The notes under the pieces were generated by a model. That model worked only from the letters and a program-made list of their open reading frames with translations, was not told the DNA's origin and did no database searches. Of a stretch of DNA of 64,000 nt, positions 27,309-55,099 are shown piece by piece. The first letter of the stretch is position 1. Each line of letters begins with the position of its first letter. The DNA comes from an uncultured Chlorobiota bacterium. Lineage in GTDB: Bacteria > Bacteroidota > Ignavibacteria > UBA10030 > UBA6906. The position numbers were made by a program, and so were the translations under genes. The stretch spans positions 64,912 through 128,911 of the forward strand of contig CAADGV010000024.1 of the NCBI GenBank assembly GCA_900696645.1, read 5' to 3'.

Positions 27309-27337
27309 ACCCCGTTGCTTGCATCTCCTCATTGTCT
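27309..27337 (+). promoter_or_regulatory. sigma70-type promoter TTGCAT-17-TATTAT upstream of the methylmalonyl-CoA mutase gene
   Basis: near-consensus hexamers with 17-nt spacer, about 45 nt upstream of ATG 27382. Confidence 0.4.
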
Positions 27338-27381
27338 TGGTTATTATTTTCTACATCCCATTCATCAGCTCTGGAAAAATT

Positions 27382-29025
27382 ATGCCTTCATCATTAGAAA
27401 ATAAGAAACGCGCGTGGAACGAGAAGCGAGTTAAGCCCGTTCTTGACAGGTTCGGCGAACGGCGAACGCATTTTGCGACAGATTCAGGAATTCCGATTGA
27501 CCGGCTGTACATCCCTCCGGCGGAAGATCACTATGACACGATAGGTTTTCCCGGAGAATATCCGTTCACACGAGGCGTCTACCCGACAATGTATCGGGGG
27601 AAATTCTGGACGATGCGCCAGTATGCCGGATTTGGTACGCCGGAGGAATCCAACAAACGTTATCGCTTCTTGCTCAGTCAGGGAACAACAGGTCTCTCCG
27701 TTGCATTTGATTTGCCCACGCAAATCGGGTACGACTCCGACCACAAGCTTGCGGAAGGCGAAGTAGGGAAAGTCGGCGTTGCCATTGATACCCTCGCGGA
27801 TATGGAAGTAGCGTTCGACGGAATCCCTCTGGACAAGGTTACCACTTCCATGACGATCAATGCAACAGCGGGCGTTTTGTTGTGCATGTACGTTGCACTG
27901 GCGAAGAAGCAAGGCGTGGACCTTAAGAAGATTTCCGGTACGATCCAGAATGATATTCTGAAGGAATACATTTCACGCGGCACGTACATCTATCCGCCCG
28001 TTCCGTCGATGCGTCTTGTGACGGATATTTTTCAGTGGTGCAGCCAACATGTGCCGAAGTGGAACACGATCTCCATCAGCGGATATCATATCCGTGAGGC
28101 AGGGGCGACAGCCGTTCAAGAAGTGGCGTTCACGCTTGCGAACGGCATCGCCTACGTTCAGGCTGCCGTGGATGCCGGACTCGACATCGATACATTCGGC
28201 TCAAAGTTGTCGTTCTTTTTTAACGCTCACAATAATTTCTTTGAGGAGATTGCCAAGTTTCGTGCAGCACGCAGGCTCTGGGCCCGTATCATGAAGGAAC
28301 GATTCGGAGCAAAAAACGACGAGACTCTCAAACTCCGCTTTCATGCACAAACGGGCGGCGCAACGCTTACTGCCCAGCAAATCGACAACAATGTTGTGAG
28401 AGTAACGATGCAGGCTCTTGCCGCCGTGCTTGGCGGTTGCCAGTCGTTGCACACCAATGGGAGGGACGAGGCTCTGGCGCTTCCGACCCAACAATCAGCG
28501 GCGCTTGCATTGCGAACACAGCAGATAATAGCCCACGAATCCGGCGTTGCAGATACCATTGATCCCATCGGAGGATCCTATTTTGTCGAATCACTCACAG
28601 ATGACATTGAAGTGAAGGCACAGGAACTTATTGACAAGATCGATACGCTTGGCGGAGCGGTGTCGGCGATCGAGCAGAAATTCTTTCAGCAGGCGATTGC
28701 AGAAAGTGCATACCGGTATCAGCTGGCAATTGAGCGGAAGGAAAAGATCATCGTTGGTGTGAATGAATTTCTTTCCGACGATGTCAGTGATGTTGACATT
28801 CTGAGAATAGGAGATTCCGCGTCGAAACGTCAACTCGAACGGCTTCAGGCGGTTCGTTCCCGGAGAAACAATGACGACGTTCGGCGTGAGCTGAATGCCT
28901 TGCGAGTTGCAGCAGACAGTACGGAAAATCTCATTCCGCATATTCTCTCTTGTGTCGAAGTGTATGCCTCGATAGGCGAAATATCGGATGTTCTCAGACA
29001 AACGTGGGGCGAGTACGCTGAATGA
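27382..29025 (+). CDS. methylmalonyl-CoA mutase, catalytic (TIM-barrel) domain only, split-type large subunit
   Basis: strong match to the MCM N-terminal domain ([35 protein letters not shown]); stops before any B12-binding domain; start at ATG 27382. Confidence 0.8.
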
Positions 29026-49530: not shown

Positions 49531-49743
49531 ATGGACTCTCCCAAAATACAAGATAGATTTGACAGGTTGCCAGAATCTGCCAAGAAACAAGTATTGGAAT
49601 TGATCGATTCCTTGGCGGTAGCTGCTGTGGAACGGACAAACCGTAACGGCGGCTTCTCGTTCTCATGGGAGGGCGGCCTTGCTGACTTGAAAACGAAATA
49701 CACTTCAGTTGAGCTTCAGCATAAAATCAACGACTTCAGGTGA
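49531..49743 (+). CDS. DUF2281-like antitoxin candidate
   Basis: 70 aa, LPESAKKQVLELIDSLAV helix typical of small antitoxins; 4-nt overlap with the PIN-like ORF. Confidence 0.4.
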   Translation: MDSPKIQDRFDRLPESAKKQVLELIDSLAVAAVERTNRNGGFSFSWEGGLADLKTKYTSVELQHKINDFR

Positions 49744-49988
49744 TGTTTCTCGTTGATACGAACGTCTTTCTTGAAATTCTGCTTGCGCAGGACGGGAAAG
49801 AGAAATGCAAAGCCTTCCTAAAGGATCATAGCGATAGTATTCACATCTCTGACCTCTCGCTGCACTCCATTGGAATAATACTCTTTCGTGAGAAACAGGC
49901 GGCAGTATTTCACCGCTTCATCCTGATTGTTACTCTTGATGCCGATTTTAGGAGAGTCGAAAGCACAGGAGCAATGCTGTTCCTCTGA
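49740..49988 (+). CDS. PIN-domain (VapC-like) protein, internally shortened (82 aa)
   Basis: canonical PIN N-terminus MMFLVDTNVFLE and C-terminal ..LIVTLDADFRRVE, but ~45 aa of the central region with the other catalytic acidic residues are missing. Confidence 0.45.
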   Translation: MMFLVDTNVFLEILLAQDGKEKCKAFLKDHSDSIHISDLSLHSIGIILFREKQAAVFHRFILIVTLDADFRRVESTGAMLFL

Positions 49989-50074: not shown

Positions 50075-50746
50075 ATGTTGAAACAGTTCACGCCTGACAT
50101 CATCCGGCAATACAACATTGAACTTGTTGTCAGCGATGGCGGCAGCACCGACCGCACGCTGGACATTGCCCGGAACTATGCTCACGTGATTGTTGAGAAT
50201 ACCGCGAACGTGAAACAAACTATTTCGCTCGGCAGGAACGAAGGCGCCAAACATGCCTCCGGCGAGATATTTGTGTTCCTGAATGCCGATACGCTTGTCA
50301 AGGATGTTCCGTATTTCTTTCGCCGCATCAACGAAGAGATTCAAGCGGAACGCCTTGCTGCAATTACATGCAGCGTTGAGATTTATCCGCATGAGAGAAG
50401 GACGATCGACAAGTATTATCACGGCTTCTACAACCGGTTTTTCTATATGATGAATGTTGTGGGAATGGGCATGGGCCGGGGCGAGTGTCATATCATGAAA
50501 CGTGAGGTGTTTGAGCAGGTGAACGGCTATGCAGCCAAAATTGCGGCCGGCGAGGATTATGATATGTTTCGTCGTCTAGAGAAGATCGGTCGTATTAAGT
50601 TCCTGAAAGATGTAGTTGTATATGAATCTCCCCGCCGCTACCGCAAGTACGGCTATGCATACGTTACGGCATCCTGGTTCATGAACTTCCTTGCTGTGCA
50701 ATTCCTTCGCCGATCCATTCTTGACGAGTGGAAACCGGTGCGGTAA
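50075..50746 (+). CDS. family 2 glycosyltransferase; conserved N-terminus upstream of the first ATG
   Basis: GT2 motifs (ELVVSDGGSTDRT, FVFLNADT); the conserved ISVIIPALNEEK block lies in-frame upstream (from ~50027) with no ATG/GTG/TTG before it. Confidence 0.65.
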   Translation: MLKQFTPDIIRQYNIELVVSDGGSTDRTLDIARNYAHVIVENTANVKQTISLGRNEGAKHASGEIFVFLNADTLVKDVPYFFRRINEEIQAERLAAITCSVEIYPHERRTIDKYYHGFYNRFFYMMNVVGMGMGRGECHIMKREVFEQVNGYAAKIAAGEDYDMFRRLEKIGRIKFLKDVVVYESPRRYRKYGYAYVTASWFMNFLAVQFLRRSILDEWKPVR

Positions 50747-50834
50747 GCGGCAGCATTGCAACTGAGCCGCGCATTCGCTATTCTTCTTGCAACATCCCCT
50801 CACTGTACGCTTTCAGTTCTTTCCTCAATCATCT

Positions 50835-52598
50835 ATGTCAACGAACAACACAGCCGAGCTTGCCGCGCAAATAGTCTTGAAAGCATTTGAAGCCTTTGAT
50901 GCCGCATTCCGCTCCATCACGCGCCGGGCAAAGCGCCGGTTCGAACAGCGCGACTGGCAGGGAGGGAGGCATGATTCAATCGAGCGGCTTGATTCGTACG
51001 AGCGTTCGCTCGATCAAGTCGTCAGGAAGCTTGATACTTCAATCGGGTCGCCGGCGCGTGAAGCGTCGTTGTGGATTGCTGCCAAGCCCAAGTTTGCTGC
51101 GCTTCTGGCACTGCGCCACGACATCGGCCGCGGAGAAACGTACTTTAATTCTGTAACGAGAAGGATGCTGCGAACAGTCGGACTGAACCGTGATGTCGAA
51201 TTCTTCTACCTCCATCCGAAACCGCACGCGCCGTACGCCGAGGAGTCGGTGTACAGAAGGTACACGAAATCTGATGACACCGAAGTGTTGGTGAAAAGCA
51301 TCCTTGATGATTGTTCCTTCAGTGTTGCATTCGAGAATCTTGATCGTGACGCTGGCTTGGTCGCGCAGGAAATCGACCTGCATCTCTGGCCGGTTATCGG
51401 CGTCGAGAACTCCGGCACAATCGATGTCGTGAAAGCAATCTTCTATCGGAACAAGGAAGCGTACATCGTCGGGAGGATTAGCGCTGCCGACAAATCCTTC
51501 CCGCTTATCATTCCACTTGTCAACGGCGGGTCGGGAATTTATGTTGACACGGTTCTTTTGGAGAGCGCGGAGGCCGGTATCGTTTTCAGCTTTGCCTATT
51601 CCTATTTCTTTGTCGATATCGAACGATATGATGCGCTGATTCAATTTCTTCGTTCGATAGTACCGCAATCGCAAACGTCGGAATTGTACATCTCGCTCGG
51701 CTACAATCATCACGGCAAAACGGGATTCTATCGTGATCTTCACAGATACGTTCACGTCTCGAAAGAACAATTCGTGATTGCGCCCGGCTTGGAAGGAGCG
51801 GTCATGAATGTGTTCACGCTGCCGAATTACGGCTTCGTGTTCAAAGTCATTAAAGATCGTCCCTGCTTTCTTCGATCGAACAATCAAACCTCTAAGGTCA
51901 TCACACAGGAAAGAGTCCGCTACCAGTACGGATTTGTTTCACACCGCGACCCGGCAGGAAGAATGGTAAATACTCAGGAATTTGAGAATCTGCGCTTCAG
52001 AAAGAAGCGTTTCGCAAGCCAGGTGTTGGATGAATTTCAACAGGCGGTGACAAGAAACGTGACGATTCTTGAAGACTATGTCATCATCAAGCATGTTTAT
52101 GTGCAAAGAAAGGTAGTCCCTTTGCCTCTGTATTTTCGCAACGAAAGAAATCCTGAAGCTATTCGTCATGTGTTGATTGATTTCGGGTACTTTCTGAAGG
52201 ATCTGGCTGCGAGCGGTGTTTTCCCCAGCGATTTGTTCAACACGTGGAACTACGGCGTTACGCAATGGGGGCGTGTTGTTCTGTACGATTACGACGATGT
52301 GTTGCCCATCGAACGCATCAGGTTTCGCGAGAAGCCGCAGCCCCGGGACGAATTGCAGGAAACCGAGCCTGAGGAAAACTGGATTCTTGCAACCGAAGAT
52401 GATTTTTTCATGGATGAGATCGAGCGCTACTCCGGCATTCCACATCCGCTCAGAGGTGTGTTCAAGTCGGTTCACGGCGACCTCTACAAACTCACATTCT
52501 GGAAGAATCTGACCGAGAATCTTCGCAAGGGCGTGATCTTTGACGTCATTCCATACGATAGAGTCAAGCGCTTCCGGGAGCATGAGAGAATTATCTAA
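50835..52598 (+). CDS. aceK: isocitrate dehydrogenase kinase/phosphatase homologue
   Basis: multiple blocks matching E. coli AceK (FEQRDWQGG, AIFYRNKEAYIVGR, VFKVIKDRP, GRMVNTQEFENL, HVYVQRKVVPL, WGRVVLYDYDD); start set at ATG 50835. Confidence 0.8.
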   Translation: MSTNNTAELAAQIVLKAFEAFDAAFRSITRRAKRRFEQRDWQGGRHDSIERLDSYERSLDQVVRKLDTSIGSPAREASLWIAAKPKFAALLALRHDIGRGETYFNSVTRRMLRTVGLNRDVEFFYLHPKPHAPYAEESVYRRYTKSDDTEVLVKSILDDCSFSVAFENLDRDAGLVAQEIDLHLWPVIGVENSGTIDVVKAIFYRNKEAYIVGRISAADKSFPLIIPLVNGGSGIYVDTVLLESAEAGIVFSFAYSYFFVDIERYDALIQFLRSIVPQSQTSELYISLGYNHHGKTGFYRDLHRYVHVSKEQFVIAPGLEGAVMNVFTLPNYGFVFKVIKDRPCFLRSNNQTSKVITQERVRYQYGFVSHRDPAGRMVNTQEFENLRFRKKRFASQVLDEFQQAVTRNVTILEDYVIIKHVYVQRKVVPLPLYFRNERNPEAIRHVLIDFGYFLKDLAASGVFPSDLFNTWNYGVTQWGRVVLYDYDDVLPIERIRFREKPQPRDELQETEPEENWILATEDDFFMDEIERYSGIPHPLRGVFKSVHGDLYKLTFWKNLTENLRKGVIFDVIPYDRVKRFREHERII

Positions 52599-52662
52599 CA
52601 GTCATGTGTTATTCCTTGTCCAGGGTCAAGGATACAATCTCTACTCGAAGGAGGGCATAGAC

Positions 52663-55099
52663 ATGGTTCGGAACGTTCTTTTTACTGTATCGTTGGTTCT
52701 CTTCTTCTCGCCGCTTTCTTCCCAAGTCAGGGGGGATACTACGCTCACCTCATTTACCCGTTTTCCTCATCAGGATTCCACACGATCGGTTTCGGAAGCG
52801 TTTCCTGTTGTTCTTCCAGATCAATCCATTCTTCTCTTCTGGGCGGATTCGACGGGAATTCGATCTTCCAAAAGTTCTGACAGGGGACAGTCATGGAATA
52901 CTCCCGTTCTTCTCGCCACGCCGGCCCGATTTGCAGTTGCGTTAACCGGCATCAGGACTTTTGCGGGGCGTTTCCTTGTATTCTGGAGAGACAGTCTCGG
53001 CATTCGCCTCACCCAATCTGATGACGCGCTGAACTGGTCTGTGCCCGTTTCTCTTGGCACAAGTTTCGGGGGGCTCAGTGTTTCTCAAACGCTTGATGGG
53101 AAAATCTGGTTGTTTGTCATTCGCATTACGAGCACAGATAATGGGTTCAGTTGGTCGCCTCCTGATACGGTAATAATCAAAGGAGGGCGACCGAGAATCG
53201 CCAGAACGTCAAACGGCACGATGGTAATGGTCTACGAAAAGCAACGGACAGATTCCATCCCTCTCTACTACAGTGCACTCGACATCTGCTACTCGACAAG
53301 CACTGATGGTGGATTTGGTTGGAGTTCTCCGGTGCAGGCCACCCGATTTGTTGGAAACGACATGTCACACAATGTGGCGATGTTGAACGACAAACCGTTG
53401 TTTACGTTTGCATCAGATCGGGGAAGAACCGGGCCCGCGTGGGAGACCATTCAAAAGCAAATCTGGTACGGGATAATCGGCGAGTCTTTGGACGAAAGTC
53501 CTCCTCCGATTCTCCTTTCAGCTTCTTCATATCACACCTTGAGTGGATTGGAGAATTGGATTCAGGCGCTTGTCGATGATGAAGCAGGCATAGCCTCGGT
53601 ACTATGCACATACTCTATTGACGGAGTCCCGCAGCCGCCCGTATACTTGCACGACGACGGAAGGAACTTCGATGTTAGTCCGGGAGACAATATCTGGGGT
53701 AGTCCCATTCCTCCGCTTTCCGTCGGCACCATTGAAGCCCGTTTCACCATTACTGATGTTGAAGGCATCAGGTTAAATAATGCGCTCGGTTTCACAACAG
53801 CAGTCACGGAACCATCGGCCTCGGCTCATGTAACCCAAGGAACCTCGATGAAAGTCGTGCTTGATGGAAGAGGCGTTTTTGGAAGGGCGGTATTTCCGAA
53901 CAACTATGCCGGAATCGGATTGCGCTATCTGGTGAACTCGACGATCGAGCATCTGTACGGCGCGGGAATCTGGATTGGCGGGATGATTGACACGACGTCC
54001 GGAGGAACCGGCCAGAAAATCAAGAGAGTTTCAACAGCCTACGAGGTTGGACCGGTCCGCTCTTCGAATTTTACCCCGGCACCAATCCTGCGGATTCTGT
54101 TTGGCGAGTGTTTGGCAGGAATGCGCCGAAGCCCGCCGGCTGGGATGCTTACTGGGGAAATTCTCTTCCATTTCGTGTCGTCGCGGACGAGAACTTTTTC
54201 TGCCAGTATAACGACTACACGCAGACTGTGTCAAGTCATGTGCCGATGGGGGTAAAAGTGATTCAACGTTCACTTATGTGGAATGACCCTGCGGCGGAAG
54301 GGATACAACTCCTTCAATTCCGTGTCATGAACACCACCACACGCACAATCGACAGCGCGTATCTTGGTTTTTTCATGGATGCCGATATCGGGCCAATCGA
54401 AGCGCCGGCTTCGATTGCATTCAACCGATCAGGATTTGTTGCTCTCAATACCGGATATACCGAAAACCCTGTCAGTTTCGGTGCAACTCCGGTCGGGGTT
54501 GCAGTACTGAATACGTATAAGCCGCTGGACTCGCTAAGATTCACCTTTGCATGGTATTCCGGGGCTGTGAGTCCGGCAACCGATAGTGAACGATATGCGC
54601 TTATGAGTCTGGATACTGTTTTTGTAAATCAGCTTCAGTTATTCGATACGCGGTTTCTTCTTTCATTCGGGCCGTTGACACTTCAACCCTACACCTCGTC
54701 AAATCCGGATACGCTTGATGTCGCCTTTGCGATTCTTGCGGCGATGGATTTGAATCAACTCAAGAGTCGTGCAGCGACTGCCCGGAATATCTACCAAACA
54801 ATTACGGGTGTCAAACTGCTGGATGATTTCGCCCCTCGGGAATTTGCTTTGGAGCAGAACTTCCCCAATCCATTCAATCCAACAACAGCCATCAGATTTC
54901 ACATTGCACAACCTTCTCATGCTGTGGTGGAGGTGTTCGATTTGCTCGGCAGACACGTGCAACCCTTGTGAATGAAGAGCGAACGGCGGGTTCGTATGAA
55001 ACGACACTCAATGCAAGCTTACTATCGAGCGGTATTTACATTTACAGACTCAAGGCAGGCAACTATGTGAGCACAAAGAAGGCCCTACTTCTGAAATAA
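52663..55099 (+). pseudogene. BNR/sialidase-repeat secreted protein with T9SS C-terminal domain, split by two frameshifts
   Basis: signal peptide, several S-x-D-x-G-x-S/W-W BNR repeats; reading continues in a second frame from ~54108 and a third from ~54968, the last giving the remainder of a T9SS CTD (FPNPFNPTTAIRF...VNEERTAGSYETTLNASLLSSGIYIYRLKAGNYV). Confidence 0.55.

Follow-up and report, generated by a model that had tools for sequence, protein, structure and literature searches.

Isocitrate lyase (ICL), malate synthase and AceK, the isocitrate dehydrogenase (ICDH) kinase/phosphatase, are classically encoded in one aceBAK operon. What does an AceK gene do in an uncultured Chlorobiota bacterium where no such operon surrounds it? 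The gene lies at positions 50,835–52,598 (plus strand) of a 64,000-nucleotide stretch of contig CAADGV010000024.1 (assembly GCA_900696645.1, positions 64,912–128,911), hereafter the window. What is new here is a clade-specific active-site signature, comprising a remodelled catalytic loop, an insertion and a DYDD metal-binding motif, together with an uncoupling of the gene from icd and aceBA. We judge it somewhat better than an even bet that the product is a functional, native member of this clade that most likely acts as an ICDH kinase/phosphatase with altered catalytic detail, a reading drawn from sequence comparison.

The coding sequence specifies 587 amino acids, from an ATG at 50,835 to a TAA at 52,596–52,598; an in-frame TTG further upstream, at 50,787, is used as a start by none of the homologues. 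Both Pfam domains of the family were matched over the full profile, AceK_regulatory (PF20423, E = 5.5e-87, profile positions 1–301 of 302) at residues 11–309 (50,865–51,761, plus strand) and AceK_kinase (PF06315, E = 4.1e-73, profile positions 1–255 of 256) at residues 311–575 (51,765–52,559, plus strand). A phmmer search of the PDB placed residues 9–581 onto residues 8–570 of Escherichia coli AceK (3eps_A, E = 1.1e-91). The full-length homology claimed in a previous sequence-only reading of this DNA, including the regulatory N-terminal domain and the kinase core, was thereby borne out, and the motifs that it had quoted, VFKVIKDRP, GRMVNTQEFENL and WGRVVLYDYDD, are each present in the open reading frame (ORF). 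The NCBIfam equivalog model NF002804, whose threshold governs naming as AceK, gave 554.6 bits against a cutoff of 488, a modest margin consistent with a divergent AceK member. An identical protein in NCBI nr, MDL1893398.1, is named 'bifunctional isocitrate dehydrogenase kinase/phosphatase [Sphingobacteriales bacterium]', and a 92% identical relative from a Bacteroidota metagenome-assembled genome (MAG) carries the same annotation. The identification as AceK is correct and was already known to annotation pipelines. An AlphaFold2 model built from a 36-sequence alignment of the clade had a mean pLDDT (predicted local distance difference test) of 67, with values mostly of 80–94 across the N-terminal regulatory domain and below 50 at residues 292–423, which form the kinase N-lobe including the insertion. 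All ten top Foldseek matches were AceK (E = 1e-23 to 1e-30), so that the fold search re-identified AceK only. The model was discarded for positioning the insertion and the remodelled loop, as its confidence in the kinase N-lobe was too low.

The numbering of E. coli AceK was transferred to the window protein through a 33-sequence alignment. The equivalents of Lys336, Asp457, Asn462, Asp475 and Asp477 (K337, D466, N472, D485 and D487 in the window protein) were invariant in all 33 AceK sequences, the window protein included. Between them, they are reported to bind ATP, to act as the catalytic base or proton donor and to coordinate the M1 and M2 metals (PMC3747045, PMC6591243). Since these five residues are invariant, the window enzyme looks catalytically competent; loss of the Asp475 and Asp477 equivalents or of the ATP-binding loop, considered beforehand as a possible argument against an active AceK, was not found, and all equivalents are kept. 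E. coli AceK (PDB 3EPS, 3LCB and 6K5L) shares with the window protein, at about 32% identity, the same two-domain architecture over the whole length, these five residues, the Gly-rich loop and a segment resembling the substrate-recognition loop (SRL).

A neighbour-joining tree placed the window protein in a tight group, clade A, apart from all other AceK proteins, termed clade B. Clade A members came from MAGs labelled Ignavibacteriota, Calditrichota, Bacteroidota and Bryobacterales, whereas clade B, with representatives in MAGs of Gammaproteobacteria, Planctomycetota, Acidobacteriota, Gemmatimonadales, Chloroflexi and Actinomycetota, belongs to the same family with the same invariant catalytic residues and is 34–41% identical to the window protein. 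A comparison of 137 clade A with 18 clade B sequences showed that the fixed differences between the two clades are concentrated in the active site. Within the 36-sequence clade alignment, mean column identity was 70% and the active-site residues were invariant.

The most conspicuous difference concerns the catalytic loop, DLFNTWN in the window protein (52,230–52,250, plus strand), which retains Asp466 and Asn472 (Asp457 and Asn462 of E. coli) but is one residue longer than the E. coli DMLFKN and has lost Lys461, with no lysine or arginine in its place. Throughout clade A, D457-x-x-x-K461-N462 is changed to D-L-F-N-x-W-N, with an invariant tryptophan and no basic residue. In contrast, the DxxxKN pattern is found in all 18 clade B sequences. 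It is also carried by 104 of the approximately 115 sequences that cover this region in a set of the 150 best family representatives; in that set, DLFNxWN, with its seven residues, is limited to five sequences, all of them clade A relatives. [quoted passage not shown]

A second feature is a six-residue insertion, PCFLRS (51,861–51,878, plus strand), which follows VIKD(R) after the strand bearing the ATP-binding lysine (Lys337, 51,843–51,845, plus strand; the invariant Lys336 of E. coli, PMC3747045, PMC9138534) and stands at the start of loop beta3-alphaC. The insertion was found in at least 134 of the 137 clade A sequences, in every full clade A locus and in none of the 18 other AceK sequences; across the 36-sequence alignment, neither its P343 nor its R347 varies. 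Loop beta3-alphaC shields the bound ATP in E. coli AceK (PMC6591243). That the invariant Arg347 of the insertion stands in for Lys461 is speculation. Third, the metal-binding motif (52,287–52,298, plus strand; roles in PMC6591243) reads DYDD instead of DYDE, with Asp485 and Asp487 (Asp475 and Asp477) kept and Asp488 at the position of Glu478. This conservative change, E478D, distinguishes all 137 clade A sequences from the 18 others, which all have glutamate; an E478A mutant showed reduced phosphatase activity (PMC6591243). In the Gly-rich ATP loop, APGLEGAVM (51,780–51,806, plus strand; APGIRGMVM in E. coli), R319E and M321A are present throughout clade A, and further changes fixed between the clades include E416Q, H468W and R254Y; E416Q also separates the window protein from the E. 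coli enzyme. Clade B keeps DxxxKN and DYDE and is without the insertion. The segment equivalent to the SRL, RIRFREKPQPRDELQETEPEENWILATE (52,314–52,397, plus strand; E. coli 484–510, as defined in PMC9138534), has the E. coli length plus one residue and retains the FR[DE]xPxPR...W motif common to other AceK proteins, and it is the least conserved region between the clades, with 28% identity against 37% overall.

The loci of the two clades differ as well. The absence of aceA, aceB and icd from the window, as reported in the sequence-only reading, was confirmed by tblastn, for which ICL, malate synthase and ICDH sequences of related loci, confirmed with Pfam, served as queries, none of them giving a match; Pfam annotation of the genes within 10 kb past each end likewise revealed none, giving 84 kb in total. 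The window aceK lies outside any aceBAK operon, unlike its E. coli counterpart. None of 44 distinct clade A loci linked aceK to icd, aceA or aceB, with approximately 0.5 Mb of flank examined in all, many contigs being short and 29 of the 44 having at least 1.5 kb upstream. By comparison, linkage was observed in 20 of 30 clade B loci (Fisher's exact p = 5e-11 vs clade A), although many of the latter come from one gammaproteobacterial lineage and are hence non-independent. In the linked clade B loci, either the end of icd lies just upstream of aceK or aceB-aceA adjoin it, which connects AceK, taken as one family, with ICDH and with the shunt. The missing aceBA linkage is itself weak evidence about the genome, as the shunt genes could be located elsewhere.

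A neighbour that might replace icd or aceBA was not apparent: all-versus-all BLAST of the ORFs in 14 and then 44 loci yielded no recurring clade A neighbour, and the Pfam-annotated neighbourhoods of the homologues P0086, P0041, P0007 and P0008 contained unrelated genes. Apparent recurrent neighbours were rejected, being either antisense shadow ORFs inside AceK or unrelated proteins that share only a tail of the type IX secretion system (T9SS). Among the window ORFs scanned, the sole central-carbon enzymes recognised were a class I fumarate hydratase (796–2,319) and a methylmalonyl-CoA mutase (27,319–29,025).

How, then, should the enzyme be expected to act? By homology, the protein would be a two-domain enzyme, with a regulatory domain at the N-terminus followed by a catalytic domain that resembles protein kinases and whose single ATP/ADP site would serve the kinase, phosphatase and ATPase reactions. 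Its most likely target would be the active-site serine of a homodimeric ICDH, engaged through the retained SRL-like segment, and ICDH activity would be throttled by metabolite and adenylate signals. The branch served may be that between the TCA (tricarboxylic acid) cycle and a glyoxylate shunt whose genes lie elsewhere in the genome; alternatively, ICDH may be controlled for another purpose. ICDH is proposed as the substrate because the homology takes in the whole protein, regulatory domain and SRL-like segment among the rest, and because the base and metal residues are intact; both activities would presumably persist despite the loss of Lys461.

Several observations weigh against this proposal. 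The near-universal Lys461 has given way in the window protein to a loop without a basic residue, the phosphatase-linked Glu478 is an aspartate, and none of the 44 clade A loci carries icd, aceA or aceB beside aceK. The loss of Lys461 lowers the claim that the protein is isofunctional with E. coli AceK and leaves the homology untouched. In addition, the classical role may not apply, because Ignavibacteria have been described without a glyoxylate cycle: Ignavibacterium album is reported to have none while possessing PFOR and KFOR (PMC3362086), and in an anammox community ICL and malate synthase were present in a betaproteobacterial MAG only and in no Ignavibacteria MAG (PMC5460018). These reports are circumstantial support for a shunt-less host, clade A AceK not being established in the genomes concerned.

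The last point leads to a sub-case of the ICDH reading in which the same enzyme acts on ICDH in a host without a glyoxylate shunt, its purpose being to gate oxidative against reductive or branched TCA flux, or to adjust the supply of 2-oxoglutarate or NADPH. The lack of aceA and aceB within 84 kb and the unlinked clade A loci are in keeping with such a non-classical role, as are Ignavibacterium album, reported to be shunt-less (PMC3362086), and the anammox Ignavibacteria MAGs, in which neither ICL nor malate synthase was encoded (PMC5460018). The lineage of the window organism is Ignavibacteria/Bacteroidota-like and comes from samples of that kind. However, the view is limited to 84 kb of a genome in which shunt genes could sit elsewhere, and the cited genomes are not established to hold a clade A AceK. 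We regard this sub-case as possible, with the odds against it.

A more radical departure would be a neofunctionalised AceK-like enzyme that acts on a different protein substrate, or that works mainly as a phosphatase or ATPase rather than as a kinase. The clade-fixed features, namely the loss of Lys461, the longer loop with its invariant tryptophan, the PCFLRS insertion, E478D, E416Q and H468W, could be read in this way, and so could the weak conservation of the SRL between the clades, the missing icd linkage and the occurrence of the unit, in a sister lineage, inside a frame that is free of stops for more than 7,200 codons. Nevertheless, the regulatory domain, the length and motif of the SRL and all metal and base residues are kept, and no alternative conserved neighbour suggests another substrate. 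Divergence of the SRL is also compatible with the usual target, as the AceK proteins of Xanthomonas and Stenotrophomonas still phosphorylate NAD-dependent isocitrate dehydrogenase despite 13 SRL differences (PMC12707098). Neofunctionalisation is thus an unlikely account of clade A.

Literature comparison with these enzymes and with AceK of Pseudomonas aeruginosa, which acts on ICD and not on the monomeric-type isocitrate dehydrogenase (bioRxiv 10.1101/318345), shows that the function persists across hosts and isocitrate dehydrogenase types, although these enzymes are proteobacterial and their hosts possess a glyoxylate shunt. Two options raised from the sequence alone, another substrate and control of ICDH in a host that has no shunt, have become somewhat more plausible, given that the active site is altered throughout the clade and that linkage has been lost altogether. 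A farther-reaching proposal, which we advance tentatively and consider doubtful, is that clade A is a functionally distinct, widespread and shunt-uncoupled form without the gamma-phosphate lysine, which either controls ICDH in hosts lacking ICL and malate synthase, for instance to set which way the TCA cycle runs or branches, or has acquired a new substrate. The ICDH kinase/phosphatase with altered catalytic detail remains the preferred reading.

That reading takes the gene to be native to its host, which raises the question of how AceK came to be in this lineage. AceK had been taken beforehand as essentially confined to Proteobacteria, a premise contradicted by the AceK loci found in MAGs of many other phyla. 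Under the depositors' own taxon labels, a genome scan identified AceK-bearing MAGs of Ignavibacteria/Ignavibacteriota, Calditrichota, Bacteroidota/Chitinophagales/Saprospiraceae, Bryobacterales and other Acidobacteriota, Planctomycetota, Gemmatimonadales, Caldilineaceae/Chloroflexi, Actinomycetes, Acidimicrobiia and Gammaproteobacteria. The protein search returned 2,887 homologues among the candidates scored, with more than 120 metagenome clusters 62–76% identical to the window protein, and an exhaustive search of representatives gave 343 clusters (50% identity) at E ≤ 1e-30. Reviews place AceK in Gram-negative bacteria (PMC4999502, PMC9138534), a statement with which its presence in an organism of the Fibrobacterota–Chlorobiota–Bacteroidota (FCB) group does not conflict, and AceK outside Proteobacteria is in itself no surprise.

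The scan also revealed classical-type AceK genes in four loci, L013, L014, L017 and L030, from MAGs labelled Caldilineaceae, Actinomycetes, Acidimicrobiia and Chloroflexi; in L030, aceB-aceA adjoin aceK. Going by the depositors' bin labels, AceK in these four MAGs reaches further than its published restriction to Gram-negative bacteria (PMC4999502). Nothing relevant emerged from searches of the literature on AceK subfamilies or on AceK beyond the Proteobacteria. A description of the clade A signature and of its uncoupling from icd and aceBA was likewise absent from the literature searched, which is not proof of its being unpublished.

Recent horizontal transfer from Proteobacteria, or contamination of the assembly by proteobacterial DNA, had also been considered, and has in its favour the historical view of AceK as a proteobacterial or Gram-negative enzyme (PMC4999502, PMC9138534) and nothing else. 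The composition of the gene is that of its surroundings: its GC content (0.503), its GC content at third codon positions (0.597) and its codon-usage distance are mid-range among 23 window genes, around the median, and its tetranucleotide correlation with the window is 0.847 (window mean 0.831 ± 0.043). Its flanks hold genes with T9SS tails and housekeeping genes, and the window is ordinary chromosomal DNA with a class I fumarase, shikimate-pathway genes, methylmalonyl-CoA mutase, ComEC and topA, among others. Several AceK neighbours carry T9SS sorting domains, and the window TopA matches a partial protein from 'Sphingobacteriales bacterium CHB3' at 100% identity, that of a Bacteroidota MAG at 96% and those of Ignavibacteria MAGs at approximately 74%; both findings agree with the FCB-type host genome recognised in the sequence-only reading. 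The similarly labelled UTCHB3 MAG of Lawson et al., at 42% GC compared with 50% here, is a different organism, and Speth et al., who likewise report a CHB3 bin, leave its TCA cycle and shunt undiscussed.

Comparison with relatives gave the same picture. The genome with the 92% identical AceK and the 96% identical TopA is GCA_019637975.1, on whose contig JAHBUR010000003.1 the order TonB-receptor, 1114-aa protein, GH57, GT2, AceK, S41 peptidase and DUF3108, on to topA, is kept. AceK divergence parallels TopA divergence, and identical contigs were assembled from several samples. The dN/dS of 0.075 between the window AceK and this relative's gene (L038) shows that the gene is under purifying selection. 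Proteobacterial AceK proteins are 34–38% identical and fall in the other clade, and the nearest relatives are all non-proteobacterial. Because of the native composition, the FCB-type flanks, the conserved synteny and the dN/dS of 0.075, a recent transfer or contamination is rejected; it is refuted by the present results and can be given hardly any credence.

As for the immediate surroundings, the location between a glycosyltransferase and a pseudogene for a T9SS cargo protein, noted earlier, was confirmed, with a GT2 gene at 50,075–50,746 upstream and a broken BNR-like T9SS gene downstream. The latter extends from 52,582 to approximately 55,100 and contains at least two frameshifts, at approximately 54,250 and 54,960, which leave ORFs at 52,582–54,255 and 54,246–54,971 and a continuation in the third frame to approximately 55,100. 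Its first ORF begins ahead of the AceK stop, with an overlap of 17 nt, and its T9SS C-terminal domain is split at approximately 54,960, the continuation in the other frame ending in '...SGIYIYRLKAGNYVSTKKALLLK*'. The ORFs up to 54,971 are 100% identical in the other assemblies that cover them, three for the first and two for the second. Upstream, a DUF2281/PIN-like toxin–antitoxin pair (approximately 49,531–49,988) lies between a cation-efflux-like gene and the GT2 gene. Because both this pair and the cargo gene are missing at the locus in the 92% relative, they are lineage-specific insertions. An Rfam scan of the window gave no match, and a scan for sigma-70 promoters and terminators around AceK was uninformative, with counts near the shuffle expectation. 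Approximately 12 kb downstream of AceK on the same contig, and approximately 3 kb past the right end of the window, there is a gene for HPr kinase/phosphorylase (L090, 13,699–14,709), another bifunctional serine kinase, which is also present in the 92% relative.

The searches also returned a number of unusual AceK-like relatives. In locus L064 (positions 1–21,725; 60,445–82,169 of the 144.6-kb metagenome contig OBEQ010095056.1), one frame is stop-free over 21.7 kb (7,241 codons) and the other five hold 265–559 stops each. This frame contains a complete AceK-like unit, 49% identical to the window protein, with the loop DLFNIWNYA, the insertion PMYVRS and a hydrophobic tail, and then, approximately 2,500 codons later, an HD_4 domain; the remainder is unrecognised and rich in hydrophobic stretches. 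The whole has the appearance of a giant ORF running past both ends of the locus. AceK-like units were also found inside predicted proteins of 2,461–6,037 aa, entries among P0189, P0216, P0227, P0242, P0244, P0255, P0273 and P0201; P0216 has a clade A-like loop, DIFNTAN, and P0201 (4,875 aa), in which AceK is combined with malate synthase, ICL and an aldo-keto reductase, probably reflects the merging of gene calls. P0129 (1,228 aa) comprises a tandem pair of AceK units, of which the second has degenerate motifs. In P0130 (581 aa, 46% identical), the catalytic aspartate ('GIFVGD') runs straight to the end of the SRL, without N462, D475 and D477; the protein would be a degenerate AceK or else an artefact of assembly.

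Reviews still describe AceK as a Gram-negative enzyme, mostly of enteric bacteria and pseudomonads. If clade A simply regulates ICDH in hosts whose shunt genes are unlinked, it would be an ordinary extension of a known family; it would gain in significance should complete genomes turn out to be without a shunt, or should its activity or substrate prove to be altered. Clade A amounts to a natural experiment that can show which residues are truly needed for the kinase and the phosphatase reaction, and it makes testable whether ICDH phosphorylation has a role beyond growth on acetate.

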